Positions 15,984-42,045 of a stretch of 64,000 nt of DNA are shown one piece after another; positions within the stretch are counted from its first letter, which is position 1, and the number at the start of each line of letters is the position of its first letter. Position numbers and translations under genes: made by a program. The DNA is taken from positions 2,179,701 to 2,243,700 of the forward strand of contig CBDBOU010000002.1 of assembly GCA_965208535.1 (NCBI GenBank), in the 5' to 3' direction. A model generated the notes under the pieces. That model had not been told where the DNA came from. It was given only the letters and a program-made list of their open reading frames with translations, and ran no database searches. Source of the DNA: Vicinamibacterales bacterium (lineage in GTDB: Bacteria; Acidobacteriota; Vicinamibacteria; Vicinamibacterales; UBA8438).

Positions 15984-18909
15984 TCAGAGCCTCGGGTCGA
16001 TCGGCTCGGCCTCGAGCGCGAGGATGGCGAACACGGCGCGGTGGACGTTGCGGAGCGGCGCCTTGGCGACGAACTGTTCCAGCGCCTCGATGCCGAGCGC
16101 GAACTCGCGCAGCGCCAGCGTCATCTTGCGGCCGGTGTTGCGGCGGCGCAGCCGCTCAAGCTGGTCGGGCGCCGTGTACTCGGGACCGTAGATGATCCGC
16201 AGGTACTCGCGTCCGCGGCACTTCAGCGCCGGGGCGGCTACGCCCCGCTCGGTGCGGGTGATGAAGTCCGCGGGCTTGACGACCATGCCTTCCGAGCCGC
16301 TTTCCGTTCGCTCGGTCCACCAGGCCGTGGCTTCGGCCACTTCGCTGTCGTCGTCGACATCGACCTCGCGGTGTTCGGTGGTGGTGAGGATGCCGTCGGC
16401 GCCGCATATGCGTTGGGCCAGTTCCATGTGCCAGCGGTGCGGCTTGTCGGCGTGTACGGCGCCTTCGGTCGCCAGCACGTGGAACGGCGCGACCTTCAGG
16501 CCTTCGATACCTTCGACGGGCCAGCTGTAGCGCCGATAGGCTTCGTCGTAGCAGGCGGTGAGCGCGGCGCGCTGTCTGAAGCGGTCGAGCAGGCCGGAGA
16601 TCTCGATGTCTCTGTCAGCCGCCTGCCGCAGTGCGGCCGTCGCCTCGCGGAGTCCCGTCCGCGCCGCGTCGCCCGCCGGCTCGTAGTGGTTGCGGATGAG
16701 TCCGCCGCCCTTGGCGGACCACGGCATGATCTCGGTGTCGATGACGGCCCAGGCGGTGTCGAGCGTGGACCATATCCGGGCATAGTCGAGTCCGGCCCGG
16801 ACCTGGTCGAGCACCTGCCGTTCGATGCCGGCGTCGTCGAAGAAGCGGCGTCCCGTGCGCGTGTGGATGATGCCGCCGTTGTCGTTGCGTACGCCGAATC
16901 GCTCCTCGGCGGCCGCGGCGTCCCGGCCGAGCACGATGATGGCCCGCGACCCCATGTGCTTCTCCTCGCACATGACGCGGCGGATGCCCCGGGCGCGGAA
17001 GTACCCGAACGCCTCTGCCGGGTGCTCGAGCAGCCCCTCGACGGTCGCCGAGGCGCACGGGGCCACGGTCGGCGGCAGGTAGACGAGCCAGCGCGGGTCG
17101 ACGGCGAATCGCGCCATCGTCTCGAGCGCGGCCGCGCAGTTCTCCGGGCGGACCGATACGCTTCCGGCGATGCGCGTGTGCAGCCGCAACGGTCCGGCGA
17201 CGTCGTCGAGGTCGAGCAGCGCGTCGCTCTCCTGCTGGCGGGTGGGGCCGGTGGTCGACCGCAGCGCCGCGGCCAGCGTCTCGGGCGGCTTGGCCCAGGC
17301 GCGTTCCGCCGGTACGGACACCAGCTCGCGCTCCGGCCAGCGCAGCGCGGTCAGGCGCCCGCCGAAGGCGCAGCCGGTGTCGATGCAGATCGTGTTGTTG
17401 ACCCACTCGGCGCGCCCGGCCGGCGTGTGGCCGTAGACCACGGCCGCGCGGCCGCGGTAGTCCTTTGCCCAGTCGAGCCGTAACGGCAGGCCCTCGGCGT
17501 CGGTCTCGCCCGTGGTCTCCCCGTAGAGGCCGAAGTCGCGTACCTGGCGCGAGGTGCGGTTCTGCAGCTCCTCCTTCATGCCGGCGTGGGCGACGACGAG
17601 CCTCCCGCCGTCGAGCACGTAGTGGCTCGGCAGCCGGTCGAGGAACTCCGCCACGCGCTTGCGGAACTCCTCGGGCGTCGCTTCGAGCTGCTCGAGCGTC
17701 TGCATCAGTCCGTGCTTGCGCTCGACGTTGCGGCCGGCGAGCGCGCGGGTTGCCGGGGATCGCCAGCGCGCTGCCGGTCTCGACCATGTCCATGACCAGC
17801 GCCAGGGCGCCGGCGCTGTCGGGGCCGCGGTCGACCAGGTCGCCGACGAACACGGCGGTGCGGCCCGCCGCCGGCGTGACGCGGTAGCCGGGGCCTGTGG
17901 CCGTGTCGTTGCGCTCGACGCGGTAGCCGAGCTTTCCTAGCAGCGTCTCGAGCTCGCCGCGGCAGGCGTGCACGTCGCCGACGATGTCGAACGGGCCCGT
18001 CAGGTCCCGGCGGTCGCAGTCGAGCGGCTCGCGGACGAGCTCGGCGCCGCGGGCGTCTTCGGGCGAGCGCAGGCGGTGGCGGCGCCGGAAGCCCTCGGCG
18101 GAGAGCTTCTTCATCCAGCGCTGCATCGAGCGCCACTGGCGGCGCACGGCATGTGGGGGACGCGCGTCGGCACCCCGGGCGGCGTTCTGTGCAAGGCAGT
18201 CGCGCTCGGTCAGGTCGAAGGCGATGGCCGTCAGCGGGGCGTGCTCGTCGCGCGCGAGCCGCACGTAGCGCTTGCGGTCGTCGGGCGAGACGTTGGTGGC
18301 GTCGATGACGGTGAGCCGCCGGGCGCGCAGGCGCCTGGTGGCGATCGCCTCGATGACGTCGAAGGCGTCCTTCGTCGTCGTGGCGTTGCGCTCGTCGTCG
18401 CCGACGACGCTGCGGTAGTGGTCCGAGGAGAGGACCTCGGAGGGGCGGAAGCAGCGCTGGGCGAACGTCGTCTTGCCCGACCCGCTGGGGCCGACGAGGA
18501 CGACGAGGCCGTAGTCGTGGATCTTCAGTTGCATCGGTGGAACGGTCCTGCTGCGGTCCTCGTTCGTGTTCACGTGGCGGAGCGGGCCGCGTGCAGCGCC
18601 GCATTCGCGCATGTATCCGACGGCTTCGGCTGCGGCGTCGGGATGGTTCGTCGAGACGGGTGTCACATCGGCCGGCGTGATGCCCGGCATCTTGCGGACG
18701 AGTCCGCCGAACACTTCTTCGAGCCACCCGCACGGGTACCCGAACTCGGCGTCTTCGAGCTCGACGCTGAGCGTCTGGCCGCGGGCCGCGGCTTCCCGCA
18801 CCTGCGGGATCAGCACGTCGTTGCGGAACTCCTCGCCCGAGCAGGCGCCCTGTTCGCGGTAGCGCGGTCCCGGGTGTCTGACGTCAGCGCGCAATCGTGT
18901 TTCCGTCAT
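15984..18909 (-). pseudogene. pnkp: Polynucleotide kinase-phosphatase/ligase Pnkp with N-terminal STAS-like (DUF4325-like) extension, interrupted near 17745
   Basis: The upstream frame (part of track ORF 16615..19275) reads MTETRLRADVRHPGPRYREQGACSGEEFRNDVLIPQV..FGYPCGWLEEVFGGLVRK (STAS-like). It continues as MQLKIHDYGLVVLVGPSGSGKTTF (the canonical Pnkp kinase N-terminus), GDVHAC and VFVGDLVDRGP..ALAIPGN. The rest (RALAGRNVERKHGLMQTLEQLE.., VVAHAG, VVYGHTP, and the ligase part with EEKHMGS, MVVKP) is in another frame (track ORF 15984..17705). The total length is not a multiple of 3. Confidence 0.8.
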
Positions 18910-19328
18910 TTCTTCGGGTTCGCGGCGTCTTCCGTTTCCGTGTTGGCCTCGAGGAACTCCTCGACGGTCTCGAACACCGGCGCGTTCCAGTCGAGCTGTT
19001 CCGCCAGCCGGTCGGCGAGGTCCTCGTCGTTGCCGATGCCGGGCCACGGCATGCCGGCGCTGTCGCGCAGCTGCAGCAGGAGGTAGCCGGCGCAGTGCTG
19101 GGTCTGCTCGCCGGAAACGTAGGTTTCCTCTCCGGTGAACGGGTTCTCGTCGCACTCGGGGGAGAGGTGACAGGGGAAGCCGTGGCGGTAGGCGTGTTCC
19201 TCGATCTCTTCGGCGCGCTCGCGCCCGCGGAACGTGATGCGGGTGTCGTCGGTCCGGAACGGGCAGTGCTTGCAAGGTTCCTTCAGGTCGAACGCATCGT
19301 CTTTTCCGTGTCGGCTCCGGGCCGTCAG
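18906..19328 (-). CDS. Cys/His-rich small protein between hen1 and pnkp (start codon unclear)
   Basis: ..DDAFDLKEPCKHCPFRTDDTRITFRGRERAEEIEEHAYRHGFPCHLSPECDENPF..QTQHCAGYLLLQ.. Its stop overlaps the pnkp ATG (ATGA at 18909-18906). There is no in-frame ATG, GTG or TTG after the hen1 stop. The only candidate start is a CTG overlapping the hen1 TGA (CTGA at 19328-19325). Confidence 0.55.
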   Translation of the reverse strand: MTARSRHGKDDAFDLKEPCKHCPFRTDDTRITFRGRERAEEIEEHAYRHGFPCHLSPECDENPFTGEETYVSGEQTQHCAGYLLLQLRDSAGMPWPGIGNDEDLADRLAEQLDWNAPVFETVEEFLEANTETEDAANPKK

Positions 19329-20680
19329 TCGCGGCGGTGGAACAGCGCCCGCTGGGTGGGTGCGCCCACCTCGGCGTCCTCGGGGCCGATCTCGCCGATC
19401 TCGACCCGGTACCCGTGGCGCTCGGCGGTCGCGCGGGCCCAGGTCCCGAACTCTTCGCGCGTCCACTCGAAGCGGTGGTCGCGGTGGCGCAGCTTCCCCG
19501 GCTCGAGGAACTCGAACCGCACGTTGTGCTCGCGGTTCGGCGTGGTCAGTGCGACCAGCGCGGGCCGGGCATGGCCGAACAGCGAACGCTCGAAGGCGTC
19601 GAGCCGTTCGGGGTCGATGTGCTCGACGACCTCGACGACGGCGGCCGCGTCGTACCCCGCGAGCCGTTCGTCGCGGTAGGTGAGCGCGGACTGGATCAGC
19701 CGGATGCGGCCGTCGCCGCTCTTTCTGCGGCGCTTGAGCTTCAGCCGGCGGTCGGCGATCTCGAGCGCGTGTACCGACGCGTCCGTGCCGGTGATCTCGG
19801 TGAACTCGGGCACGTCTGCGAGTCGGCGCAGCAGGCGGGCCTGGCCGCAGCCGATGTCGAGGATGCGCCTGGCGCCGGCCTTGCGGAACGTCCCGATGAC
19901 CCATTCGTGGCGCGCCTGGTGCAGGCTGACGCGCTCGGGGGGCTCGGTTTCTGCGTCGGCGTCGCCGTCCTCGGCGTCGTCGGGAACGCGCAGGCGCGCG
20001 GCGGCGTCGGCGGCCAGCGTGTGCCGGTGGCCGAGGTAGCGGCGGACGATGACGTCCTTCTGCGGGTGCTCCTCGAGCCAGCCCGCGCCGTGGGCGAGGA
20101 GTTTTTCGACCTCGGCCTCGCCGATCCAGTAGTGCTTGCGGTTGTCGGCGACGGGCAGCAGCACGTAGACGTGGTTGAGCAGCTCGGCGAGCGTCTTCGT
20201 CGCCCGCAGCCGCACGTTGCGGTAGCGCGGGCGCTCGTCGTCGGGGTCGGCCGTGGTCTCGACGTCGTAGCCGAGCGGTCCGAACAGGTCCTCGACCAGG
20301 GTCTCGGCGCCGCGGCAGGGGACCGCGGCCAGCGTCGCCTCGAGCGGGATCGGGGCACCGGCCAGCTCGGGGCGTTCCTTCGCGCGGCCGCTCATCGCGG
20401 TCCCGAACACGCGGGCCATCGCCACCGAGAGGAACGACGAGGAGACGTACGGCCGGTCGTTGACGTAGTCGGTGAGCACGGCGCCCGGGCCGCGGACCAG
20501 CTTCAGCGGGTCGATGTCGAGCAGGAGTGCGGCGGTGCAGCGCTCCGGCGTGGCCTCGGTGTAGAAGACGTGGGCGCTACCGAAGGCCAGCTCGAAGGTC
20601 TGCGCGCGGGCCGGGTTCTTGTGCAGCAGGTAGCCCAGGTCGGTCGCCGGGCGGTGCGTGGTGGAGATGGTCAGCAGCAT
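19325..20680 (-). CDS. hen1: Bacterial Hen1 3'-terminal RNA ribose 2'-O-methyltransferase
   Basis: MLLTISTTHRPATDLGYLLHKNPARAQTFELAFGSAHVFY is a characteristic bacterial Hen1 N-terminus. The SAM-methyltransferase motif ILDIGCGQARLL and VVEVVEHI are in the C-terminal half. Confidence 0.9.
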   Translation of the reverse strand: MLLTISTTHRPATDLGYLLHKNPARAQTFELAFGSAHVFYTEATPERCTAALLLDIDPLKLVRGPGAVLTDYVNDRPYVSSSFLSVAMARVFGTAMSGRAKERPELAGAPIPLEATLAAVPCRGAETLVEDLFGPLGYDVETTADPDDERPRYRNVRLRATKTLAELLNHVYVLLPVADNRKHYWIGEAEVEKLLAHGAGWLEEHPQKDVIVRRYLGHRHTLAADAAARLRVPDDAEDGDADAETEPPERVSLHQARHEWVIGTFRKAGARRILDIGCGQARLLRRLADVPEFTEITGTDASVHALEIADRRLKLKRRRKSGDGRIRLIQSALTYRDERLAGYDAAAVVEVVEHIDPERLDAFERSLFGHARPALVALTTPNREHNVRFEFLEPGKLRHRDHRFEWTREEFGTWARATAERHGYRVEIGEIGPEDAEVGAPTQRALFHRRD

Positions 20681-20717: not shown

Positions 20718-21251
20718 TCACGCCGGGTCCTTCCCGGCGCCGGGTTTGCCGTAGTGCGCCTCGTACTCCATGCGCAGCATGTTGTTCGGTGAACTCAGCG
20801 CGCGTACCAGGGCGCGTCCGGTCTCGCAGTTCGGGTTGTCGGCCGCCGTGGCGAGGTGTTCGACGACGGCGGGGTCGATGTCGAGGATACGCGCGATCTC
20901 CGCCCTGTGCGGGCCTTCGTGCAGGATGGCCGCGGCGGCGTACAGCGTGGCCTCGCGGTCGAGGCTCTCGGGCGCGGCGTCCGGGTCCTCCTCGTCGAGG
21001 TGCTCGCGGACGTGCTGCCGCTCGCGGTCCACCGCCTCGGCGAGCTTCCGGTGCTCCGGGTCCTGCAACAGCGCGTCGATACGGTCGCCGCGGTGGATCG
21101 TTGCGGTCGCCAGCGGGCACAGCCGCAGTTCCGGGTGGTTGTCGGTGTCCTCGATGGCGACGTACCGGATGCTGCCGAAGTACAGGCCCCAGCAGTAGTC
21201 GCGGAGCTCTTTCTTCAGCATCTCGATGGCCTTGCGGGTCGGTCCGGTCAT
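20718..21251 (-). CDS. Hypothetical protein, tandem paralog 1 (177 aa)
   Basis: MTGPTRKAIEMLKKEL..CPLATATIHRGDRIDALLQDPE..ATLYAAAA..GRALVRAL. It aligns along its full length with the 21274..21807 product. Confidence 0.65.
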   Translation of the reverse strand: MTGPTRKAIEMLKKELRDYCWGLYFGSIRYVAIEDTDNHPELRLCPLATATIHRGDRIDALLQDPEHRKLAEAVDRERQHVREHLDEEDPDAAPESLDREATLYAAAAILHEGPHRAEIARILDIDPAVVEHLATAADNPNCETGRALVRALSSPNNMLRMEYEAHYGKPGAGKDPA

Positions 21252-21273
21252 GACGGGTCTTTGCGGTCGCGGG

Positions 21274-21807
21274 TCATTCCGCGGCGTCGGGGTTGCCGTA
21301 GTACGTCTCGTACATGGCCCCCAGCCACTCCGAGGCCGGGTCCAGGGCGCGTATCAGCGCTCGGCCAGCTTCCGAGTGCGGGTCGTCGCTCGCGTCGACG
21401 AGGGCGGCGATGGTGTTCTCGTCCATCCGGAGGATCCGTTGCGTCACGACGTTGTGGGGGAAGGTGTCCACGAAGGCCGCGGCGGCGTGCAGCGTCGCGT
21501 CGCGTTCCAGGTCCTCGGCGTGTTCCGGCGTGCGGTGGTGGTTCACCGCCTGGAGGTGTTCGCGGATTCCCGGGCGGACCGAGGCCACCCAGTCGGTGAA
21601 CTCCTGCTGCTCCGGGTCCTGCAGGAGCTCGAGCATCCGGTCGCCCTGCTCGTACGCCGCCATGGCGAGCGGGCAGATCGTCCGTTCGCCGTGTCCATGG
21701 GTATCCTCGAGAGAAGTGCACACGATGCGTCCGCGGTTAAGTTCCCACGGGTGCATGTCGAGTTGCTTCCCCAGTGTTTCGATGGCCTTGCGGGTCTGTC
21801 CGGTCAT
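21274..21807 (-). CDS. Hypothetical protein, tandem paralog 2 (177 aa)
   Basis: MTGQTRKAIETLGKQL..CPLAMAAYEQGDRMLELLQDPE..ATLHAAAA..GRALIRAL. It has the same length as its neighbour and shares those sequence blocks. Confidence 0.65.
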   Translation of the reverse strand: MTGQTRKAIETLGKQLDMHPWELNRGRIVCTSLEDTHGHGERTICPLAMAAYEQGDRMLELLQDPEQQEFTDWVASVRPGIREHLQAVNHHRTPEHAEDLERDATLHAAAAFVDTFPHNVVTQRILRMDENTIAALVDASDDPHSEAGRALIRALDPASEWLGAMYETYYGNPDAAE

Positions 21808-21870
21808 GTGCGTCCTCTGGTGTGGTGCGTGTGGTCGGGTTTGTTGCGGCGCTCGGGGGCGACGCTTCGG

Positions 21871-22653
21871 CTACTCGTTCGTTTCGACGCTGATTTCGAC
21901 GGCGTCGACTCCCGGGTGCTTGACGACGCGTACCGTGCTTCGGTCGGGGATCAGGTGTGCGACGCGGTGCTGGATGGAATAGCGGAGCTTCTCGTCTCTG
22001 GCGGCGGTTTTGTCGAGCAGTAGATCGCACGCCGCGTAGTACGCGTTTTCCCGGGAGTCCTTCAGCTGGGTTTCGAACGAGTCGTCGTTCTCGTCGCCGC
22101 CGGGTTCGAAGACCGCGTCGTGGATGAGGACACTCAGCTCGTCGATGTCGAGCCTGCTGCCGGCGCCGAGAAGGACGCCTGCGGTCGTCGCGTCGGACTC
22201 GTACTCGTCGGCGACGGCGAAGTCGGTGGGAAGCTTCAGTGTCCGCGTGTCGTTGTCGTCGTTGCCGCGCTGCAGGACGGCGTGGACCGTGATGGCGTCG
22301 ACCGACGCGTGGTTGTTGTAGTCGTCCACCCCGTTCCGCGGGCATTCGAGCGTGACGGTCTTGCCGTCCAGCCGGTACTCGATGCGCATGGCGACGATCC
22401 GTTCGAGACCGTCGTGCCAGGGCGTCCGCTCGCTGAGCGGTACCGGGTCGAACAGCCGCTTGGCGAGACCGTTCCGCTCGGCGGCCCGGTGGAGCGTCAC
22501 CCGGTCGCGGTTCTCCGGCAGGCCGCCCAGTGCGACGAGGATCGGCGGGTCGCCGATGGCGGCCGTCGTGTCGAACGTCTCGAAGACTTCTTCTTCGCGG
22601 TTCCAGCTTCGCGGGCGCCACCGGCGCAGGCTTGCGGGTGCGGTTGCGTTCAT
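21871..22653 (-). CDS. Hypothetical protein (260 aa, acidic)
   Basis: Coding-like composition with no recognised motif. Its start overlaps the stop of the upstream gene by 4 nt (22653/22656). Confidence 0.6.
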   Translation of the reverse strand: MNATAPASLRRWRPRSWNREEEVFETFDTTAAIGDPPILVALGGLPENRDRVTLHRAAERNGLAKRLFDPVPLSERTPWHDGLERIVAMRIEYRLDGKTVTLECPRNGVDDYNNHASVDAITVHAVLQRGNDDNDTRTLKLPTDFAVADEYESDATTAGVLLGAGSRLDIDELSVLIHDAVFEPGGDENDDSFETQLKDSRENAYYAACDLLLDKTAARDEKLRYSIQHRVAHLIPDRSTVRVVKHPGVDAVEISVETNE

Positions 22654-22655
22654 CG

Positions 22656-23201
22656 TCAGGCTCCTCGTGTGTCGTGGCGCAGTTCCGACCAGAGCGGATA
22701 TGCGCGAGCGTGGAACGGCATCAGGTAGGCGAGTGCGGGCGCGGTCGCGTCCTCTCCGGTCCAGACGCCGATGGGCATCTTCGCGTCGTTGTTGCCGGGG
22801 TCGGCCGCGCGCCAGATCGTTCCCGTTCGCCGGTGGCGCCAGAGGACGTAGGCGGCGATGTCGGCGGGGAGGACCAAGCTGTCGATCAGCCAGAAGAGTG
22901 GTCGTCCCATTACGAGCGACCAGCCCAGGGGCCTTTGCACGGGCGAGTTCCGCACGTTGCCGATCCAGGGCGTGCTCTTTGTGTCGATGCAGTGGAAGGG
23001 CTCGGCGTCGTCCGGCTCCGGCGGTTTCCGGTGCAGGAACATGTTGCTCCCGTCGTGGCTGTAGCGCGTCGTCCCGCAGACCTGGATCGTCCGCGGGCAG
23101 TCCGGGCGGGGGACCGCGACCGGAGTGAAGCCGTCGAACGGACGCGGCCTCATCTCGTCGAGCGTGGCGACGAGGTCGCGCCAGGATGCGGGTTCACGCA
23201 T
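22656..23201 (-). CDS. Hypothetical protein (181 aa)
   Basis: Trp-rich and protein-like. It overlaps the upstream gene by 8 nt (23194/23201). Confidence 0.6.
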   Translation of the reverse strand: MREPASWRDLVATLDEMRPRPFDGFTPVAVPRPDCPRTIQVCGTTRYSHDGSNMFLHRKPPEPDDAEPFHCIDTKSTPWIGNVRNSPVQRPLGWSLVMGRPLFWLIDSLVLPADIAAYVLWRHRRTGTIWRAADPGNNDAKMPIGVWTGEDATAPALAYLMPFHARAYPLWSELRHDTRGA

Positions 23202-23883
23202 TCTCGTCCTCGTCCCTGTCGACTGGCGCGAGCACCAGCACGTGGCTGTGCCATTTGCTCAGGATCCAGTGGCCCCACATCGCCCAGCCGCCGTAGACCG
23301 TTCCGCACAACGCCGCCAGTCCGATGTCGACGGCAGGGTGCAGTCCGGTCGGCGTCAGCAGCGATCCGGCCGCGGTTGCGGCTGCCGTCACGATCCCCGC
23401 GGCCGCGCGGGTGGTCCGGTGGTGGAACGCCGGGTACCGCGGCGCGTGTGCGCCGACCACCTCGATGATGCTCGCGATGGTCGCGCGGCGCCATGCGCCG
23501 TCCCTGCTCGTCACGCTCAGCCGTGTGTGTCCGTCGCAGGCGTGCATGCGGATGGCGTCGTCGTCGACCGCCGCCAGGCGGCGCGTTGCACTCAGCGACC
23601 AGTCGCGGCTGCGCACCGGCTCGTTCAGCCCGTCGAGGTCGCTCTCGTCGATCCGCACCGTCTCGCGGTTCCGCCGATTCCACGTTGCGGAGAACGTCAC
23701 GCGCGGTTCGTCCAAGCCGTGCCGGTCCGGGACCCGCGTGCCGTCGGCGCTTTCCATCGCCGTCCGCGCGGCGTCGCACAGCGCGTCCAGCGCGGCGCGG
23801 TCGACGCGTACCGGCGGCAGCTTCACCTCCGCCGTGGTCACTCCGCTTTCGTTCCGGGCCTTTTCGCCCTGTGTCGTCGTCAT
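23194..23883 (-). CDS. Hypothetical membrane protein (C-terminal hydrophobic helices)
   Basis: The C-terminus AAAGIVTAAATAAGSLLTPTGLHPAVDIGLAALCGTVYGGWAMWGHWIL suggests two transmembrane segments. Confidence 0.6.
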   Translation of the reverse strand: MTTTQGEKARNESGVTTAEVKLPPVRVDRAALDALCDAARTAMESADGTRVPDRHGLDEPRVTFSATWNRRNRETVRIDESDLDGLNEPVRSRDWSLSATRRLAAVDDDAIRMHACDGHTRLSVTSRDGAWRRATIASIIEVVGAHAPRYPAFHHRTTRAAAGIVTAAATAAGSLLTPTGLHPAVDIGLAALCGTVYGGWAMWGHWILSKWHSHVLVLAPVDRDEDENA

Positions 23884-23917
23884 GGTCGCTCTCGTGGTGC
23901 GAGTGTGCGGGGGCGGC

Positions 23918-25255
23918 TCAGGCTCCGCACCCGCGCGCGGGGACGGACTGGTCGCAGGCGGCCGGCGCCCCGGGTGTTCGGACGCTTTCTCTCACGGTGC
24001 GGTAGTCGAGCTTGCTCAGTCCGAAGAAGCCGATCCGGGTCGGGTCGTCCGTTCCGCCGCGCTCCCGGCGCATGCGGTGCTCGGCGACGAGGTCCCGGCC
24101 GTACTGCGCCTCGATCCGCTCCCACCACCGGATGTCGCACGGCGTCCCCGTGGTCGGTCCGAAGCCCGGCGCCGGTTGCGGATCGCGCATCGCCGCGTGC
24201 ACGGCCTCCAGCTTGCGCGCCCCCTTCAGGAAGCAGTAGACGCAGTTGGAGAGCTCGGCCGCCGGGTCGAGGCCCAGGTCCCAGGACTGGCGGCTCCAGA
24301 ACCGGTTCACGTCGCCGCGGTCGATGCCCATGCGCTCGAACGGCATGTAGACGTGCTCGCCGTTGTGGTCCGCCTTCGCGTGCGGGTCGTCGTTGCGGCT
24401 GCGCACGCGCGCGATCCGCGCCGGTTCGTCGTTGCGCAGCCCGATCAGGACGACGTACTCGGCGCCGCCCTTGCCGAGCGTGGCGCGGCCGCCGAAGACG
24501 TGTGGTTCGATCTCTGGGTTGTCGAACGGTCGCGCGGCGTCGGAGAAGTCGGCGTAGGCTTGGGCGGGGCGCCTTGTCGGCCGACCGAGCACGTACTGCC
24601 GCTTGCCGATCAGGATCGCGCGCGGGACGGTCCCGCCGGCGCGCCGGTGCAGCTCGTACATCTCGTCGAGGTCGACGCGCGAGTGCGCGCAGCCGTGTCC
24701 GAGGGCGTCGATGCCCGGCTTGCCGGCCAGCCAGTCGGCCAGGAAGGCGCGGGTCGGCCCGAGCTTCAGCTCGGCGGTGCAGACGCGCCGGTGGCGGTTG
24801 GGCAGGTACGCCCTGTGCGAGACCAGCTCCTCGAACACTTCTCCGCGCCAGTGGAAGCCGTTCGGGTTGTTCTGGGTGCGCGGGCGTTCGTTGACCAGCC
24901 GGTAGGACTGCAGGCGGCGCCAGCGGCCGCGGCGCGCGTCCTCGCAGGTCTGGAACTCGGCAAGGAAGAAGGGGATGCGGTAGGTCCGCTCGACGCGTCG
25001 CTTGCACTCGGCGACGAAGCGGTACGTCTCCGGGTGCTCGCAAGCGGTGTTGTTGAAGACGACGACGTCGCCGCGTTCCGGCTTCAGGATGCCGTTCTCG
25101 AGCAGGACGAAGAGCAGCATTCCGCTCGACCGTCCGCCGGAGAACTTGACCACGTGCGGCAGGCGCTCGTGCGTTTCGGAGCGGTACGTCAGGGTGTGGG
25201 AGGCGTGGTTCGCGGCGTCCGTCGTGCGGATCTCGAGTTCGGGTATCGCGTTCAT
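23918..25255 (-). CDS. PAPS-reductase / DndC-like PP-loop ATP pyrophosphatase family protein (446 aa)
   Basis: The ATG at 25255 is in frame with track ORF 23918..25996. The PP-loop VVKFSGGRSSGMLL is followed by NNTACEHPETYRFV, as in the PAPS-reductase fold. A long C-terminal extension carries NCVYCFLKG. Confidence 0.75.
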   Translation of the reverse strand: MNAIPELEIRTTDAANHASHTLTYRSETHERLPHVVKFSGGRSSGMLLFVLLENGILKPERGDVVVFNNTACEHPETYRFVAECKRRVERTYRIPFFLAEFQTCEDARRGRWRRLQSYRLVNERPRTQNNPNGFHWRGEVFEELVSHRAYLPNRHRRVCTAELKLGPTRAFLADWLAGKPGIDALGHGCAHSRVDLDEMYELHRRAGGTVPRAILIGKRQYVLGRPTRRPAQAYADFSDAARPFDNPEIEPHVFGGRATLGKGGAEYVVLIGLRNDEPARIARVRSRNDDPHAKADHNGEHVYMPFERMGIDRGDVNRFWSRQSWDLGLDPAAELSNCVYCFLKGARKLEAVHAAMRDPQPAPGFGPTTGTPCDIRWWERIEAQYGRDLVAEHRMRRERGGTDDPTRIGFFGLSKLDYRTVRESVRTPGAPAACDQSVPARGCGA

Positions 25256-26085
25256 GTCGGGTCTTGTGCTTTGAGCGCGACGCCGTGGATGCGGCCGGCC
25301 GCGAAGCAGCACGGTGCAGCGCCCATGAAGTGGGGCGGGCCGCCTTCGAGCAGCACCATGCCGAGCCGGGTGGCCGCGAAGTCGGCGGTGAAGTGGACCT
25401 CGTCCTGAAGCGGTCCTCCGGCGGCGGCCCTGCCGCCGTCCGGTGCCCCCCGCATCGCGTTCGCGCGCATCTGCTCGCTGGCGATTACCGGCCACTCGAA
25501 GGGCGGCTCGAGCTCGTCGAGCAGCGCGGCGACGTGCTTCTCGATGACGGCGAGGTGTTCGTCGTTGCGGGGCAGCGGGCGCTGCGGATAGTAGGAGGAG
25601 ATCCCGACCAGCTTGCCGCTCTCGACGAACGCCCGGTACTCGACCGGGTAGCCGTCGAGGAAGAGCATCTCGTCGCCGATCCAGGGGCGGCGCCACACGG
25701 GGACGACGACGCGCGGGTAGTCCTCGAGGATCTCCAGCAGGCGGCAGTCGACCGGGAGCGAATGCCGGGTCCCCGCGTCGGGCTTTCGCCCCTCGTTCAT
25801 CGAGAACTTCAGGTCCGCGCTGGCGCAGCAGTCCCAGCGGAGCATCCAGTTGGGGGACGTGGCGCGGCGCACGGCCTCGTACGCGGCGTCGAGCCGTTCC
25901 TGGTGGGGGCCCGCTTCGTCGTGCTGCAGCAGGTCGTAGCGCTCGAAGTCGGTCACGTGCATCGCGGGCACGTGCGGTATCTCGGCGCGTTCGCATGCGC
26001 GGATCCAGTCGCCGAGCGAGTAGGGGCAGAACCTCGACGGGCTCAGCAGCCGGTCCTCCGGGCGGCGGTCGTCGGGCAGCAGCAT
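25252..26085 (-). CDS. ATP-grasp-like protein (putative amidoligase)
   Basis: YPVEYRAFVESGKLVGISSYYP and ..HFTADFAATRLGMVLLEGGPPH resemble ATP-grasp strand motifs (ExRxFV..G and D..E.N-like). Its stop overlaps the ATG of the PP-loop gene (ATGA at 25255-25252). This call rests on motifs only. Confidence 0.5.
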   Translation of the reverse strand: MLLPDDRRPEDRLLSPSRFCPYSLGDWIRACERAEIPHVPAMHVTDFERYDLLQHDEAGPHQERLDAAYEAVRRATSPNWMLRWDCCASADLKFSMNEGRKPDAGTRHSLPVDCRLLEILEDYPRVVVPVWRRPWIGDEMLFLDGYPVEYRAFVESGKLVGISSYYPQRPLPRNDEHLAVIEKHVAALLDELEPPFEWPVIASEQMRANAMRGAPDGGRAAAGGPLQDEVHFTADFAATRLGMVLLEGGPPHFMGAAPCCFAAGRIHGVALKAQDPT

Positions 26086-26137
26086 GGGTGGTTCCTCGTG
26101 GGTTGTCGGCCGCCGGGTGGAAAGGGCTTCGTTGGTG

Positions 26138-26593
26138 TTACCGCGCGTGGTCCCAGATGCGTCCGGGCATCTCTCCGGCCAGCACGCGGTCGATGGCCGT
26201 GGCCGCCTGCTCCGGCGTGATGGTGTGCAGGTTGACGTGCGGTGGCGGGGACAGCAGCCGGTGGGGCGCCAGCCCGTTGAACCCGAGGATCGTGTCGGCG
26301 ACTTCCATCGGTCCCTGGCGGTGGCCGCGTCTGTGCTGCGCGTTGTCGGCGATCCGTGTCGCCGTCTCCGGGTACAGCTCGATGGTGAGCCCGACGATGG
26401 AGCCGACCGTGCAGCTCTCGCGTTCGGCGTGGATGACCCGCATGTCGAGCGTGTCGATCCGCGGCAGCTCCTTCGGCGCGCTCGTCAGCGTGTCGGCTCC
26501 GGTGACGCTGGTCTGTGCCGAGGACCTGTTGTCGGTGATCGACTTCAGCGTGCGTACGGTGTCCCGGACCTTGGTCAGCCTGTCGCGTTTCAT
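26138..26593 (-). CDS. Hypothetical protein (151 aa)
   Basis: MKRDRLTKVRDTVRTLKSITDNRSS.. Its start overlaps the stop of the upstream gene by 4 nt (26590/26593). Confidence 0.55.
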   Translation of the reverse strand: MKRDRLTKVRDTVRTLKSITDNRSSAQTSVTGADTLTSAPKELPRIDTLDMRVIHAERESCTVGSIVGLTIELYPETATRIADNAQHRRGHRQGPMEVADTILGFNGLAPHRLLSPPPHVNLHTITPEQAATAIDRVLAGEMPGRIWDHAR

Positions 26594-26943
26594 TGTGGCC
26601 TCGACGCCGGCGGCGGCTGGATCGCGGCGCGCCGGGCGTTCCTCAGCCAGGCGTGGACCAACTCCTGCACCGCTTCGGGGTTTTCGAGGTCGTCGAATGC
26701 CTCGGGTGCGTCCAGGGCTCGCCACGCCGGCGCTACAAGGCCGCTGACGGGATCCCTGTCCGCGTTGAGCCGCAGGATCAGGACGTCGAATCCTCGTTGC
26801 GCCAGCGTTCCGAAGGCGCGGCGTTCGTCCTTGTCCAGCATGGATCCGGGCGCCAGGGTCCTGACGACGAGCACCCGGTCGCCGATGGTCAGGAACGACG
26901 CCTCGTGCAGTTCGACGCCGTCGAGCAGTTCGTTGGTGTTCAC
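26590..26943 (-). CDS. Hypothetical protein (117 aa)
   Basis: MNTNELLDGVELHEASFLTIGDRVLVVRTLAPGS.. has coding-like composition. Confidence 0.55.
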   Translation of the reverse strand: MNTNELLDGVELHEASFLTIGDRVLVVRTLAPGSMLDKDERRAFGTLAQRGFDVLILRLNADRDPVSGLVAPAWRALDAPEAFDDLENPEAVQELVHAWLRNARRAAIQPPPASRPQ

Positions 26944-27068
26944 TTGGACCAGTTGGATCCGCTCGTCCGTTCCCGGTTGGAGTCTTGCGGATGGCGGTTA
27001 GTGGTTGTTGAAACCGGAGGTTCCGCTTCCGGGAAACAGCGTACCTTCAGGCGGTGTCCGGGTGGTGG

Positions 27069-27272
27069 TCAGAACCTGAACGGCCGGCCCAGCCGGTGCG
27101 AGATGCGTCTTTCGTCCCGCCGGTCGAGGAAGTCGCGCGCGTCGTTCGCGTTCGGGTGCAGCGTCTTCTTGCTGCTGGTTGTGCCGGTTTTGCCGGTTCT
27201 CTCGGCCGGGGCGGCCGGCCTGGTCTGCTGCTGGGCGCGCTCGACTTTCTTGGCCTGGCATCGTTTCATCAT
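27069..27272 (-). CDS. Small basic hypothetical protein (67 aa)
   Basis: MMKRCQAKKVERAQQQTRPAAPAERTGK.. A strong RBS, GGGGGGAGAGAGAC, sits directly upstream of the ATG at 27272. Confidence 0.5.
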   Translation of the reverse strand: MMKRCQAKKVERAQQQTRPAAPAERTGKTGTTSSKKTLHPNANDARDFLDRRDERRISHRLGRPFRF

Positions 27273-27315
27273 GTCTCTCTCCCCCCGCGGTTTGTCTGCG
27301 TTGCGGGCCGGTCGT

Positions 27316-27951
27316 TCACGGCTTGATCGGTTCGACGCACGTTGCGAGCAGCTGCAGGAGGCGCTCGGTTTCCGCGTTGACGGGGATCTCCCGGGTCCGG
27401 GGGCCTTCCGGGTCTTCGTCCTCGAGGACGAGCTCGAGCGTGGCGACGACGTGCATCGGCTTGCCGTCGCAGTCCAGCGGGCACTGCACGTAGTAGCCCG
27501 GCGCGGCGCCGAGTGCGATCCGGATCTCTTCCGGGTGGCGTGGCTTGCCGTCCCAGGTGTTCCACTGGGAGCGCGCCTCGGTGCGGAGTACGGTCTGAAG
27601 GCCGACGTCGCGGCGCAGCTCCGCCGCGCCGGCAGGGCTGCGCTCGTACGCCTCGGCATATCCGGCTCGTTCGTCTTCCCCGGGGTGGTGCAGCCGTACC
27701 AGGTGGTCTTCGCCGGTTGCGTCCAGGTGTGAACGTCTCTTGACGTATATGCGTGTTACGCCGCCTGCGGGGTTCTTCGCTTCTATCGGCCGGTTCGAGA
27801 TCTGTAGGATGACCGGGTCGGTCTCTTCCGGCTGCAGGATCCAGTCCTCGATCAGGGCGAAGGCGTCGCTCAGGTACTTCAGCAGCGAGTGCAGCTCGCG
27901 CGGCGGTGCGGGGTCGACGTTCAGGAAGTCGTACGGATGGTCGTCGTTCAT
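27316..27951 (-). CDS. Hypothetical protein (211 aa)
   Basis: MNDDHPYDFLNVDPAPPRELHSLLKYLSDAFALIEDW.. No recognised motif. Confidence 0.6.
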   Translation of the reverse strand: MNDDHPYDFLNVDPAPPRELHSLLKYLSDAFALIEDWILQPEETDPVILQISNRPIEAKNPAGGVTRIYVKRRSHLDATGEDHLVRLHHPGEDERAGYAEAYERSPAGAAELRRDVGLQTVLRTEARSQWNTWDGKPRHPEEIRIALGAAPGYYVQCPLDCDGKPMHVVATLELVLEDEDPEGPRTREIPVNAETERLLQLLATCVEPIKP

Positions 27952-27990
27952 CGGCTTGTGGTGCTGCGGCCGGTGCCGGCCGCGGTGGTC

Positions 27991-28194
27991 TCACAGGCAG
28001 GTATTGTTGTTCTCGTCCGACGCGGCGGCTTCGAACTCGGCGGACTGCTGCTCTCCGCAGCTCTCGCAGGCCATCTTGCGGCCCTTCGGGTGGTAGAAGG
28101 CGCGCTCTCCCTTCTTGATCTTCCGCCGGCACGTGGCGCACTCTCCCGGGTACCGGGTGGTGATCCATCGCGGGTCGTCTCTGTAGCGTGCCAT
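27991..28194 (-). CDS. Small zinc-ribbon protein (67 aa)
   Basis: TRYPGECATCRRKIKKGERAFYHPKGRKMACESCGE contains a CxxC..CxxC pattern. An AAGGAG RBS lies upstream of the ATG. Confidence 0.6.
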   Translation of the reverse strand: MARYRDDPRWITTRYPGECATCRRKIKKGERAFYHPKGRKMACESCGEQQSAEFEAAASDENNNTCL

Positions 28195-28257: not shown

Positions 28258-30350
28258 CTAGCCCAAGTTTAACAAGGGTATTTCTAAGCTATTTGGAATC
28301 AGCGGTTTACGCCGGCAAGAATGCTCAAGTGGCACTACAAACGCGCACAAACCGGGAATGGGTCGGTCAGATGGTCGTCTTGCGGACTCCTCCCGGCTGC
28401 GGGTCGATGCCGAGCGCGTCGTAGATGGCCCGCTGTTCGGGTTCGGCTTGCGTGGCGGTGCGCACGTGCAGCGTGCGTCGGTCGGGGCGCCGGAAGGTGG
28501 CGGTGACGCGCTGCTGGCCTTCGAGGATGCGGCGTAGGGTGGTCCAACTGGCGTGTTCGCCGTGGGCGCGCAGCCGGGTGCGGATGACCTGCACGAGCTG
28601 GTAGGCGATGACGGTGATGAACAGGTGGCCGTCGGCGCGCCGCGGCTTGTGGTGGTAGATGGGACGCAGTCCGAGCTCGGACTTCAGCGCGCGGAAGACG
28701 GCCTCTACGTCGGTGAGCGTGGTATAGGTGCGCCACAGGGCGTCTTCGTCCCAGTCGGTCTCGCTGCTGCGCAGACAGTAGACGCCCGGATGCGTGGCCA
28801 TCGAGCCGTCCTGGGGCCGTCGGGTCCAGGTGACGGTGGCGGCCTTCTCACCGGTCTGGTCGGGGGTGACCTCGATCTGGTAGTGCGGGGCGACGCGGGA
28901 ATGCTTTGCCTTCAGTCGCCCGATGCGCTGCCAGACCTGGCCGAGGCGCTTGTGCGCGCGGGGGCGCGCCAGCCCGTCGTTGAGATTGGTCAGGGCCGTC
29001 TCGAAGCGGGCGGCGAAACGTTCGACGATGCCGCGTTCCTTCTCGGCCCGCTCCTCGGAGTAGCAGTACAGGCGCACCTCGTCGGGGTCGGTCGAGACCA
29101 CCTTGTGCAGATGCACGGTCTGTTTGGATTGGGTCTGGATCGCGACGGCGGCCTCGGCGTCGAATTGCCGGTGGCGTTCACGACTGACGACCAGATAGCG
29201 GTAGCCGTTGTCGCGCAGCCACCCGATGGCGGCCTCGGTGGCGACGCCGCGGTCCATGACGACCAGAGCGCCGGCCGGCGCACGAAGCGCCTCGAGCATG
29301 CCGGCCAGCGTGCGGTGCTCGCGGACGTTGCCGGCAAAGACCTGCGAGCGGCGCACGAAGCCGCTGGCGTCGAGCATCAGTCCCAGGGTCAGCAACGGAC
29401 AATCGCTGCGCTTCTCCTTCGAGTGCCCGCGCTTGGCCTGCGGCTGTGCGCTCGCCTCGCCTTCGAAGTAGGTGTTGGTCAGGTCGTAGAGGGTGACCGT
29501 CGGCTGCAGGTCGAACAGGCCCATGGCCCGTTCGAACAGGTGTGCCTCGATCGCGTCGCGATGCTTCACCAGCGCGTCCGAGGCGCGGTAGAGCTGCATC
29601 GCGCTGACGGTCTCGAAGTCGACGCCGAGCAACTCGCCGAGACCGCTGCGGGTTTGCAGCCAGCGGTGCGTCGCGCGCTCCGAGGCCGGCTGGGCCAGGC
29701 GCCCGACGACGGCGCCGACCGCCGCGGTGCGCAGCGCGCCGTTGACACCCAACTCAGTCAGCAGGGCCGGTAGGCCCAACTGCTCCAGGGCCCACAGGCC
29801 GACCTGCTCGACGCCGACGCAGCGGGGGCGGACCAGGCGCAGCGAGTCGACGTCGACCGGCTGGATGTCTGTCGGTCCGGCGGCCGGTCCCTGCACGGGT
29901 GTGCCGCGGGCGATCAACTGTGCGGCTATCCGTTGCGCTTCGTGTTCGACGGCGGTCGGGCAGTCGGGGACCAGGGGCGTCTGGCCGGCCAGGATGTCGT
30001 CGATGCGGGAGCAGAGCAGCGGCCATTGCGCTTGGGGAATGTCGAAGTGGCGTCCGAGATTGAGCAAGGTGCGCTGGCGGACGGCGTTGCCGATGCGCTC
30101 GGAGTGGACGAGGCGATGCGAGAAGTAGGGCTGTCCGTCTTCGGTCCGCCGGGTTTGGGTACGCCGAACGAACATGCGCCCACGATAACGGGTGCACGTC
30201 CACCGAAGCAACACATCCCTGAAAATTATGGCACTACATTCAGCTCTGCCAACCTCCGCTTCTTTAGAATCAACAAGTTACGAGCCTGCGACCTCTGAAA
30301 TATCGCCCAGATCTACAGAATTGTCGGCAATCCTGTTAAACATGGGCTAG
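28258..30350 (-). mobile_element. IS1634-family (IS4 superfamily) insertion sequence, 2093 bp
   Basis: Terminal inverted repeats are CTAGCCCAAGTTTAACAAGG (28258..) and, as the reverse complement of ..30350, CTAGCCCATGTTTAACAGGA. Low-GC ends flank a single long transposase gene. No clear target duplication was found. Confidence 0.85.
28367..30175 (-). CDS. IS1634-family DDE transposase
   Basis: MFVRRTQTRRTEDGQPYFSHRLVHSER.., YDLTNTYFEG, KRGHSKEKRSDCPL, LVVMDRGVATE and YTTLTDVEAVFRALKSELGLRPIYHHK are typical IS1634 blocks. Confidence 0.85.
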   Translation of the reverse strand: MFVRRTQTRRTEDGQPYFSHRLVHSERIGNAVRQRTLLNLGRHFDIPQAQWPLLCSRIDDILAGQTPLVPDCPTAVEHEAQRIAAQLIARGTPVQGPAAGPTDIQPVDVDSLRLVRPRCVGVEQVGLWALEQLGLPALLTELGVNGALRTAAVGAVVGRLAQPASERATHRWLQTRSGLGELLGVDFETVSAMQLYRASDALVKHRDAIEAHLFERAMGLFDLQPTVTLYDLTNTYFEGEASAQPQAKRGHSKEKRSDCPLLTLGLMLDASGFVRRSQVFAGNVREHRTLAGMLEALRAPAGALVVMDRGVATEAAIGWLRDNGYRYLVVSRERHRQFDAEAAVAIQTQSKQTVHLHKVVSTDPDEVRLYCYSEERAEKERGIVERFAARFETALTNLNDGLARPRAHKRLGQVWQRIGRLKAKHSRVAPHYQIEVTPDQTGEKAATVTWTRRPQDGSMATHPGVYCLRSSETDWDEDALWRTYTTLTDVEAVFRALKSELGLRPIYHHKPRRADGHLFITVIAYQLVQVIRTRLRAHGEHASWTTLRRILEGQQRVTATFRRPDRRTLHVRTATQAEPEQRAIYDALGIDPQPGGVRKTTI

Positions 30351-32777: not shown

Positions 32778-33242
32778 TCAGCGCGCCGGCATGTACAGGA
32801 GCCAGCGCAGCCGCGGGTGGCGCGCGGCGGCGGCGAGCAGCAGGGCGCGCACGTCGTTGCGGTCGAGGCCGCCGAGGCCGCAGCCGAGCGGCGGGACGGC
32901 GACCGAGCCGATCTCGTACTCGGTGCAGCAGGGGCCGATGGCGTCGATGGTGGAGCGCACCAGGGCGATGGGCGACGGGTCGCGCCAGTGGACCTTGGTG
33001 GGGCAGTGCAGCACGTGCCGGCCGTCGGGCAGGCGGTGCGCGTGGACGAGGCCGCGGCCGAGATCGCCGCTGCGCAGCGCGTCGCGGTAGGCGAGGAAGC
33101 TCGAGGGCCAGCGTCTGCGGAACTGCAGCGCCAGCCCGCGGCCCATCACGCCTGTCAGGTTCACCGGGTTGCAGATCGCGTCGGCCGGCGCGTCGAGCAG
33201 GTCGCCGGCCGTGAAGTTGACGTTGGCCGGTGCTTTCTGCAC
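32778..33242 (-). CDS. Stand-alone macro domain protein (ADP-ribose binding/hydrolase fold)
   Basis: FTAGDLLDAPADAICNPVNLTGVMGRGLALQF.. and SVAVPPLGCGLGGLD match the macro-domain N-x6-GG-type loop and the G-x-G-G motif. Confidence 0.8.
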   Translation of the reverse strand: MQKAPANVNFTAGDLLDAPADAICNPVNLTGVMGRGLALQFRRRWPSSFLAYRDALRSGDLGRGLVHAHRLPDGRHVLHCPTKVHWRDPSPIALVRSTIDAIGPCCTEYEIGSVAVPPLGCGLGGLDRNDVRALLLAAAARHPRLRWLLYMPAR

Positions 33243-41099: not shown

Positions 41100-41331
41100 G
41101 GAGAGTCCTGCTGTTCGGATTCCGGGATTGCGAGTCGGCGCACGCGCCGTAGAGAGTGTGCGGGACGTTGCCGGGTTTGCGCTGGCTTCGTGGCGGGCTT
41201 GCGCGCTCGTGTTTCGGGTTGTCGGCGTTCCGCGCGTTCGCGCTCTTGGTGTTCGCGTCGCGGTTATTGCGACGGCACCTGACATGAGGTCCGCATACTC
41301 GTCGCTGACAGCGGAACGCGGGAGGAAGTGG

Positions 41332-41969: not shown

Positions 41970-42045
41970 TGGAGCCGGCGAGCGGACTCGAACCGCTGAC
42001 CTGCTGATTACGAATCAGCTGCTCTACCAACTGAGCTACGCCGGC
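41970..42045 (-). tRNA. tRNA-Thr (anticodon CGU)
   Basis: The reverse complement folds by hand as GCCGGCG-TA-GCTC-AGTTGGTA-GAGC-A-GCTGA-TTCGTAA-TCAGC-AGGTC-AGCGG-TTCGAGT-CCGCT-CGCCGGC-T-CCA. This gives a 7-bp acceptor stem, a TTCGAGT T-loop, an encoded CCA and anticodon CGT. Confidence 0.93.

Follow-up and report, generated by a model that had tools for sequence, protein, structure and literature searches.

Introduction

The closest described relatives of the enzyme treated here are the phosphorothioate writers DndC (Dnd system), SspD (Ssp), BrxP (BREX type 4) and TdpC (Tdp), PP-loop enzymes of the PAPS-reductase type. The cysteine desulfurases DndA and SspA are often replaced by IscS, and tdpC alone suffices for phosphorothioation (PMC12914056). 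Orphan methyltransferases carried by plasmids are thought to shield them from restriction (PMC11602122), and among ATP-grasp enzymes the R2K.2 and R2K.3 families have been proposed as protein-modifying peptide ligases acting in phage-host conflict (PMC4431377). Here we analyse a stretch of 64,000 nucleotides from a Vicinamibacterales bacterium (contig CBDBOU010000002.1), henceforth called the window, in which twelve minus-strand genes, labelled A at the upstream end (28194) to L at the downstream end (20718), include both a putative PP-loop sulfur-transferase (gene G) and an ATP-grasp enzyme (gene F). An earlier note, made from the sequence alone, had proposed that these genes form one system built around F and G which feeds an RNA methylase, Hen1, and an RNA ligase encoded downstream. 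Comparison with related loci leads to a different picture. The array is quite likely a mosaic of independently exchangeable accessory genes of a mobile element rather than one pathway, and G appears to be an orphan modification enzyme on that element, derived from a divergent DndC/SspD-like family with an apparently undescribed parent cluster. Fetched genome loci are designated by L numbers (L001, L007 etc.), homologous proteins by P numbers (P0002, P0307 etc.) and the window copy by W.

Results

Gene G belongs to a divergent PP-loop family

The PP-loop motif SGGRSS of G (FSGGRSSGM, residues 38-46) is invariant in all 16 aligned members of its family, and G retains each of the further columns which are invariant across this alignment, among them the CVYC motif and several cysteines. 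Compared to relatives of 81-85% identity, its ratio of non-synonymous to synonymous substitution rates (dN/dS) amounts to 0.31-0.37. Judged from these features, the enzyme looks functional. In PADLOC it is matched by the hidden Markov models (HMMs) of SspD (E 5.2e-10, residues 144-177 only), BrxP (1.1e-5, residues 35-102) and DndC (E 0.04-0.07), all of which cover short segments rather than the full length of the protein.

The family is large and strongly conserved. Homologs of G fall into more than 1100 clusters at 90% identity, and the 50% library contains 168, 718 and 1424 representatives at E-values of up to 1e-30, 1e-10 and 1e-3, respectively. Members from different phyla are 50-60% identical, and the record titles of several of the metagenome-assembled genomes (MAGs) encoding them name sponge-associated taxa, e.g. 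Ca. Poriferihabitaceae, Ca. Entotheonella and Ca. Hopanoidivorans cymbastelae. In P0307 a full C5 cytosine DNA methylase (PF00145, E 3.9e-70) is fused N-terminally to a G-family domain (35% identity, 7e-77), and similar fusions in P0301 and P0300 bring the number of fused members to three. These fusions, the best available sign of the substrate, albeit an indirect one, point to DNA as the target of the G family.

The family usually resides in a different conserved cluster

Of 83 other loci, about 75 place the G-family gene beside genes for a GHKL-like ATPase (PADLOC PDC-M33A), a PDC-M33B-like protein and a protein with a weak DUF6339-like match, usually accompanied by a desulfurase. The set which nearly always follows the PP-loop gene in the fetched loci consists of a DndA/SspA-like cysteine desulfurase, the GHKL-like protein of ~660 residues, the PDC-M33B-like protein of ~285 residues and the DUF6339-like protein of ~333 residues. 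The PADLOC matches of these partners reach E-values of 1.9e-143 (SspA), 3.1e-142 (DndA), 1.1e-27 (PDC-M33A) and 3.6e-8 (PDC-M33B). The 88 sequences with a G-family match, a count that includes the window and four duplicate loci, contain a desulfurase in 76 cases, the GHKL-like protein in 75, PDC-M33B in 72 and the DUF6339-like protein in 70. The GHKL motifs are invariant, and eight of ten members match HATPase_c weakly. A reverse search starting from the GHKL-like protein recovered, in 66 loci among the matches listed, the PP-loop gene 62 times, PDC-M33B 66 times, the DUF6339-like gene 62 times and the desulfurase 48 times. With only 48 of these 66 loci, among the matches listed, carrying a desulfurase, this component is dispensable.

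The cluster, exemplified by L013 (9971-16306) and likewise by L007 and L010, occurs in more than 100 fetched loci from MAGs of many phyla. In the literature searched we found neither a description of the PP-loop/GHKL/PDC-M33B/DUF6339-like arrangement nor papers on PDC-M33 or DUF6339, nor any link of PDC-M33 to a PP-loop enzyme and a desulfurase. The terms GHKL, MORC and ATP-grasp do not occur in the text of a reappraisal of the Dnd machinery (PMC10853773). From the analogy to the Dnd, Ssp, Tdp and BREX type 4 systems we infer that this parent cluster would encode a DNA modification-restriction system based on sulfur (phosphorothioate-like), in which the PP-loop enzyme is the writer.

Orphan copies of G are confined to one family of related elements

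In the 88-sequence survey and the further loci, G without any partner was encountered only in the window and in L001, L002, L004/L085, L111, L112, L119, L120, L076 and L083. All orphan copies come from MAGs of Vicinamibacterales, Acidobacteria or Gemmatimonadetes and lie on related elements that form one family. The 64-kb window itself contains no partner gene of the parent cluster, cysteine desulfurase included. The canonical locus nearest to the window clade of G is L007, likewise from Vicinamibacterales (63-67% identity). The G proteins of L076 and L083, in contrast, are 56-59% identical to other canonical sequences and only 49-53% to the window clade. As they are thus closer to canonical proteins than to the window clade, the sequences indicate that the element family has captured G at least twice.

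Gene order erodes with distance

The order A to L is retained only in L001, L111 and L112, whose G proteins are 81-85% identical to that of the window. Even there, L001 (85%), which otherwise retains A to J, carries an IS110-type transposase gene in place of hen1-pnkp, and L111 (81%) has additional genes between K and L. In L119 (73-74%) additional genes are present and K/L are missing. In L120 (70%) E immediately precedes G, F is lacking, and I is present together with G but no homolog of H or J is detectable. In L076 and L083 (52-53%) G occupies other positions and F, H, I and J are absent. L086 and L087, which have no G, show E-F followed by unrelated genes, and in L085 G is truncated. F without G is found in L086, L087 and at least 20 other loci, G without F in L120, L076 and L083, and the two are adjacent only in the closest relatives. 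Thus, the gene order holds in close relatives of one element family and is lost with distance. Upstream of the array, the relatives L085, L111, L112 and L119 encode ArdC (ArdcN and MPTase domains).

These comparisons bear directly on the proposal that the twelve genes constitute one system around F and G, which they do not support: the two genes are separate in many loci and the usual cluster of the G family is another one. Anchoring the neighbourhood comparison on the PP-loop and ATP-grasp proteins, a check that the earlier note had suggested, reveals that co-occurrence of the components is confined to the immediate element family, within which it erodes, and does not extend to distant genomes. 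Outside that family the outcome is thus the one which the note itself had named as refuting its proposal, namely a lack of joint occurrence of the homologs. Nor does the array appear to feed hen1-pnkp, as had been supposed, for this pair is absent from L001 despite the presence of A to J, and in the window pnkp is inactivated. What survives is the general theme of nucleic acid modification and conflict rather than metabolism, without the single system that was to include the RNA methylase and ligase.

Gene F is an ATP-grasp protein of the R2K clade

The assertion that two products of the array have a recognisable fold was correct: G falls into the PP-loop/PAPS-reductase superfamily, and the AlphaFold2 (AF2) model of F (mean pLDDT 74.8) reveals an ATP-grasp fold. 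Foldseek places this model closest to Cdc123 (4zgp_A; E 4.8e-6, probability 1.0, TM 0.41-0.45), and among viral proteins Cdc123/ATP-grasp proteins rank at the top (Cdc123, E 2.6e-6). The match of F to Pfam R2K_3 remains below threshold (E 0.02; 15.5 bits vs a cut-off of 26.3), although the homologs P0163 and P0174 bear precomputed assignments to PF18299 or PF14243 (R2K_2/R2K_3 domains). Residues Arg83, Asp85, Lys93, Glu149, Arg151, Asp235 and Glu247, candidates for the catalytic and Mg-binding positions (Lys/Arg of the RAGNYA strand, E-x-R strand, D ... ExN) that were assigned by eye rather than by structural superposition, are invariant in the family, and E-G-G-P-P is found family-wide at the place of the usual ATP-grasp ExN (ExGD in R2K.3). 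No neighbour is conserved across 28 loci of this family, which comprises 351 homologs, and in L001 and L002 the gene appears to be split. F is probably an ATP-dependent protein-modifying ligase and an independent conflict gene.

Layout of the array

All twelve open reading frames (ORFs) were confirmed on the minus strand at the coordinates given in Table 1, in a window of ~69% G+C. The intergenic gaps amount to 39 nt (A/B), 43 nt (B/C), 125 nt (C/D), 52 nt (E/F), 34 nt (G/H), 63 nt (J/K) and 22 nt (K/L), which bears out the previously stated range of 22-125 nt. Of four start/stop overlaps originally counted, D/E (4 nt), F/G (4 nt) and H/I (8 nt) are real; the I/J junction at 22653/22656 is a gap of 2 nt. 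The start of hen1 indeed lies 37 nt downstream of the end of gene L. The third-position GC signal expected of coding sequence at high GC is present in 11 of the 12 ORFs, gene C being the exception, and homologs in related elements exist for all 12 (dN/dS 0.13-0.82). No terminator-like hairpins or sites were found on the minus strand between 15500 and 28600. Strand, spacing and the lack of internal terminators are sequence features of the operon type and would be compatible with co-transcription of the array genes. The limits of the array are arbitrary, however: an insertion sequence (IS) transposase gene abuts A, and minus-strand genes make up most of the confident calls between ~9.5 and 37 kb.

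Table 1. Positions of the array genes and of other features within the window
Feature	Position	Strand	Basis or remark
Gene A, 67-aa zinc-ribbon protein (CxxC...CxxC)	27991..28194	-	weak matches to TIGR04104, phrog_1581/5664
Gene B, 211-aa acidic protein, specific to element family	27316..27951	-	ORF and coding call, no family match
Gene C, 67-aa basic ORF, pI 11.6	27069..27272	-	weakest coding signal of the 12; missed by the GC3 model
Gene D, 117-aa protein, no assigned function	26590..26943	-	ORF and coding call
Gene E, 151-aa protein, no assigned function	26138..26593	-	homologs in related elements
Gene F, R2K-clade (Cdc123-like) ATP-grasp enzyme, 277 aa	25252..26085	-	AF2 and Foldseek; weak R2K_3
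Gene G, orphan PP-loop (PAPS-reductase superfamily, SspD/DndC/BrxP-like) putative sulfur-transferase, 445 aa	23918..25255	-	motifs and HMM matches
Gene H, 229-aa protein, mildly hydrophobic C-terminus	23194..23883	-	ORF and composition
Gene I, 181-aa Trp-rich protein, one hydrophobic segment (residues 102-120)	22656..23201	-	ORF and composition
Gene J, 260-aa acidic protein	21871..22653	-	ORF and coding call; no PDB or family match
Gene K, 177-aa paralog 1	21274..21807	-	44% identical to gene L
Gene L, 177-aa paralog 2	20718..21251	-	44% identical to gene K
hen1, RNA 2'-O-methyltransferase	19325..20680	-	Hen1_L E 3.2e-98 and methyltransferase domains; intact
Two small conserved ORFs between hen1 and pnkp	18939-19292, 18595-18909 (18595..19292)	-	tblastn
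pnkp, disrupted	15984..18534	-	PNKP_ligase E 2.5e-165 for C-terminal part; tblastn splits gene over two frames
IS transposase (DDE_Tnp_1)	28367..30214	-	Pfam E 1.6e-11; abuts upstream end of array (gene A)
RecD-like helicase, intact	12454-14721
Macro-domain gene	32778-33242
530-aa ORF	37735-39327	+	weak ParB_N and Dam-type N6-adenine methylase matches
AlpA/excisionase-like ORF	40987-41589		at island edge near tRNA-Thr
tRNA-Thr(CGT)	41970..42045	-	ARAGORN; probable island boundary

The other genes of the array

Apart from F and G, only A is matched, weakly, by any family in Pfam, NCBIfam, PADLOC or PHROGs, and B, D, E, H, I, J, K and L have no match at all in PHROGs, NCBIfam and PADLOC. As far as these three collections can see, the possibility that the array consists of ordinary phage replication or morphogenesis genes is thereby rejected. 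Searches of PDB sequences with J, B, K/L and E returned nothing meaningful. Aligning A to L by hhalign with the four partner families of the parent cluster gave probabilities below 13% throughout, on which grounds we also rejected the presence of cryptic parent-cluster partners among them. Nine products, other than F, G and those of the hen1-pnkp cassette, are fast-evolving, element-specific small proteins. Their initial characterisation mostly stood, namely a zinc ribbon (A, with five cysteines), a basic protein of 67 residues (C), acidic proteins (B, D, J, K and L), a Trp-rich one (I, 4.4% Trp) and a paralogous pair (K and L). The description of H as a membrane protein is weakly supported, as no 19-residue window of the protein exceeds a Kyte-Doolittle value of 1.5.

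The distribution of these genes among the related elements is uneven. Homologs of A, 60-93% identical, are present in L001, L111/L112, L085 and L076 (dN/dS 0.14-0.36), those of B in L001, L111/L112, L119, L120, L085 and, at a different position, L083, and those of D only in L001, L002 and L111/L112. E is shared more widely within the element family than any other small gene (34-96% identity; L001, L002, L085-L087, L076, L083, L119 and L120); it immediately precedes F in L086/L087 and G in L120. H follows G in W, L001 and L111/L112, with an additional gene of 182 codons intervening in L119. Homologs of I occur in L001, L111/L112, L119 and L120, and those of J in L001, L111/L112 and L119. The dN/dS values of H and J are fairly high (0.46-0.66).

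Gene C is retained as an independent ORF of 64-68 residues in L001 and L119. The C-terminal ~25 residues of its product (27069-27149) correspond to the tail of an E-like protein of 201 residues in L111/L112 (L112 7954-8034; 78-95% identity), and similar C-terminal matches are seen in L120 and L085. This tail may be a shared module, or gene C may be a remnant of an E-like gene.

The K/L family is rare, with only 22 clusters among 5.8 billion proteins. A single copy is present in L112 and in L076, two are present in L111 and a remnant in L001. A further homolog is encoded by the unrelated element of L113, beside an LPD1/LPD5 polyvalent protein and with no hen1 nearby. K/L as a hen1-specific partner was rejected on account of this homolog and of L083 and L119, which possess hen1 but not K/L.

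The Hen1-Pnkp cassette

The cassette downstream of the array contains, besides hen1 and pnkp, two small ORFs which are 86% and 78% identical (tblastn) to L112 proteins of 128 and 111 residues in the same position. They show weak matches to DUF6283 and DUF4325 (STAS-like), L076 has a homolog of the first, and they may be accessory parts of the cassette. Hen1 is encoded in L111/L112, L119, L076 and L083 and is missing from L001. Nucleotide alignment with L112 and L076 reveals that pnkp of the window has suffered a deletion of 17 nt at ~17748, by which the phosphoesterase motif GNHD(A/S)KL is lost and the reading frame shifted; L112, L076 and L083 encode an intact Pnkp of 855 residues. Because of this deletion the RNA-repair cassette is probably inactive in the window. 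The RNA ligase on which the earlier note had built part of its proposal belongs to this disrupted gene.

The genomic island

The array is part of an island taken to extend from ~6.5 to 42 kb, with AT skew being negative between ~6-6.5 and 42 kb. Flanking housekeeping genes, named by eye from their translations, encode UvrA, EF-P, UvrC, TrpS and ribosomal protein S1. No direct repeats (att) of at least 18 nt and no integrase ORF were found around tRNA-Thr. We read the island as an integrated, partly decayed mobile element. It is not evidently a known phage or plasmid, as judged from plasmid, phage and IMG/VR collections: G has no match in the plasmid collection and distant PAPS-reductase matches only in the phage collection, IMG/VR yielded one remote match of G and two matches of F, and a JGI metagenome scan found no close relatives of G.

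At the position of the IS transposase gene, relatives carry ardC and other small genes. The array of the window, in which ArdC was not found, may for this reason have been truncated or re-promoted at this point. With regard to the 530-aa ORF, fusions of ParB with a methylase typify anti-restriction proteins of plasmids and phages. The island further encodes a Uma2 nuclease, an RNase_T-like exonuclease and a UvrD-like helicase, the last read from sequence. A second RecD-like helicase gene is represented by a piece of its 3' part (11057-11587). The DNA of this piece is 81-92% identical to the end of the intact gene, with repeats at 11128-11430 and 12524-12828, which points to the remains of a tandem or an earlier element. 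Outside the island, at 2619-3739 on the minus strand, two adjacent ORFs resemble OrfA and OrfB of an IS3-family transposase, as judged from their translations.

Discussion

We favour an explanation, to which we assign a probability of roughly 0.55, that combines a mosaic accessory array with the role of G as an orphan writer. G would be a stand-alone PP-loop, probably iron-sulfur-containing sulfur-transferase and a copy of the writer of the parent cluster. Drawing on a housekeeping cysteine desulfurase, it would place the mark of the parent cluster on the DNA of its own element. In hosts equipped with the cognate restriction module, the element would in this way evade restriction. F would be an independent conflict gene, and RNA repair would be the task of a cassette of its own, made up of hen1, the two small ORFs and pnkp, which is inactivated in the window. 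The anti-restriction role follows the same logic as has been applied to orphan methyltransferases on plasmids and phages; taken by itself, we consider it tentative and put it at somewhat less than even odds. If it is correct, mobile elements evade modification-dependent immunity with writers that modify the backbone or introduce sulfur and not with orphan methylases alone. The literature searched contained no case of an orphan phosphorothioate-type writer that is carried by a mobile element and has a demonstrated anti-restriction role.

Several observations weigh against this explanation. To our knowledge, all phosphorothioate writers except TdpC need a P-loop ATPase partner, and a DndD/SspC/BrxC-type P-loop ATPase is absent both from the window and from the parent cluster, where the ATPase partner is GHKL-like. 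The defence role and the sulfur chemistry of the parent cluster are themselves drawn by analogy, and among the GHKL matches listed a cognate restriction module in the hosts of orphan-G elements was not established. The assignment of G is not beyond doubt either: its match to Pfam PAPS_reduct (PF01507; E 6e-4) reaches 20.3 bits vs a cut-off of 22.5 and covers residues 34-89 only, its profile has no match among PDB sequences, and the AF2 model calculated from the 16-sequence alignment (pLDDT 37.6) provides no usable fold. Searches of the window for genes of an integrase, a relaxase or type IV secretion, which would indicate the kind of element, found none. The 4-nt overlap of F and G and the conserved run G-H-I-J in the window clade are not explained by an orphan writer, and every step of the explanation is computational. 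Finally, the first cysteine of the nearly invariant C-terminal CxC motif is lost in window G as well as in P0002, P0004 and P0006, where the C-terminus (23918-23950 in the window) reads ...GGC(G/A)(A/V) instead of ...PC(D/A)C(T)..., and G is truncated in L085. On account of the cysteine loss and this truncation some copies of G may be decaying.

Carried further, the latter findings, together with the nearby pnkp pseudogene and the apparently split F in L001 and L002, would make G a decaying, non-functional passenger from a captured defence cluster and leave the array without any modification activity. We regard this as quite unlikely, as the full-length ORF of 445 codons keeps all family-invariant columns, including PP-loop and CVYC, its dN/dS across relatives of 81-85% identity is 0.31-0.37, and both independent captures have been retained. 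Hardly more credible is a compact, self-contained module F-G-H-I-J or G-H-I-J, in which G writes a mark and the small, partly hydrophobic proteins H, I and J act as effector or sensor and which could be an exclusion, addiction or mini-defence system replacing the GHKL module of the parent cluster. The retention of G-H-I-J in W, L001, L111, L112 and, with one inserted gene, L119 speaks for such an arrangement, as do the tight F/G, H/I and I/J junctions. L120, though, has G and I with no detectable H or J, L076 and L083 lack all three partners, H, I and J are unlike the parent-cluster partners in hhalign, H and J evolve fairly fast, and in this small, closely related sample the linkage may reflect shared ancestry. 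We therefore hold the module to be unlikely.

The reading of the earlier note, according to which the array and hen1-pnkp are one modification/repair system whose PP-loop enzyme adenylates, whose ATP-grasp enzyme ligates and whose products feed the RNA methylase and ligase, has in its favour the common strand, the short gaps, three overlaps including F/G, the lack of terminator-like sites and the identical order in L001, L111 and L112. It is nevertheless very improbable and largely refuted by comparative genomics, as the order is lost with distance, F and G occur without each other, hen1-pnkp is dispensable to the array in L001, the K/L homolog of L113 does without hen1, pnkp is inactivated in the window and the G family normally belongs to a different conserved cluster. 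The main lesson is one of caution, as neat alignment of genes on one strand of a mobile element need not signify one system. Least probable of all do we deem a role of G in the thiolation of RNA, e.g. tRNA, acting together with Hen1-Pnkp in RNA protection against ribotoxins. PP-loop, iron-sulfur and cysteine desulfurase chemistry is admittedly common to the tRNA thiolases ThiI, MnmA, TtcA and Ncs6 (PMC12914056), and an RNA-repair cassette does lie downstream of the array. The fusions of G-family members to C5 DNA methylases, conserved partners which are the candidate defence proteins PDC-M33A/B rather than RNA enzymes, and the missing linkage of hen1-pnkp to G in ~75 canonical loci and in L001 all argue against it.

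Irrespective of the orphan copies, the parent cluster deserves attention as an unstudied set of four to five genes, present in many symbiont MAGs, that may represent a new type of sulfur-based restriction-modification. A more far-reaching version, in which the PP-loop family defines an undescribed sulfur-based DNA modification-restriction system, be it a fifth phosphorothioate-type system or one with a different sulfur mark, whose writer has been captured at least twice as a stand-alone counter-defence gene and would thereby be the first orphan writer of a sulfur mark employed against restriction, is conceivable but, in our estimation, doubtful.

Comparison with known systems

With bacterial Pnkp-Hen1 RNA repair the cassette of the window shares adjacent genes for Hen1 (Hen1_L and methyltransferase) and Pnkp (kinase, phosphatase and ligase); it differs in the two small ORFs between them, in its carriage by a mobile element and in the disruption of pnkp, and it is not an obligate partner of the array. 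F resembles the R2K clade (Cdc123, R2K.2/DUF4343 and R2K.3) in its predicted fold and in the R2K_2/R2K_3 domains of its homologs, and, like the published R2K.2/R2K.3 families (PMC4431377), it is sporadically distributed in mobile contexts and has no fixed partners. Its subthreshold Pfam score and the E-G-G-P-P sequence in lieu of ExN/ExGD set it apart. The PADLOC entry PDC-M33 (A and B) matches the ~660-aa GHKL-like protein and its 285-aa partner, yet it is a two-protein candidate entry, and these genes are not in the window.

With DndC, SspD, BrxP and TdpC, G has the SGGxxS PP-loop and the C-T-x-x-L-K motif in common. DndC, SspD and BrxP are its best PADLOC matches, and its family usually stands beside a DndA/SspA-like desulfurase and defence-candidate genes. 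In contrast to them, G matches short HMM segments only, lacks an above-threshold PAPS_reduct or PDB sequence match, and its family is partnered by a GHKL-like ATPase, PDC-M33B and a DUF6339-like protein instead of a P-loop ATPase, the window copy being without any partner. For such a lone writer TdpC provides the precedent (PMC12914056). The setting recalls anti-restriction leading regions, with ArdC in the relatives and the weak ParB_N and Dam matches in one ORF as well as the macro domain in the window, although the label is an analogy only, because searches found neither a relaxase nor oriT nor type IV secretion genes. The situation of G parallels that of the orphan DNA methyltransferases and ArdC of plasmids, integrative and conjugative elements and phages, in that a mobile element carries, as part of a long run of genes on one strand, a modification enzyme without a restriction partner (PMC11602122). 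The chemistry of G, however, would be sulfur transfer and not methylation.

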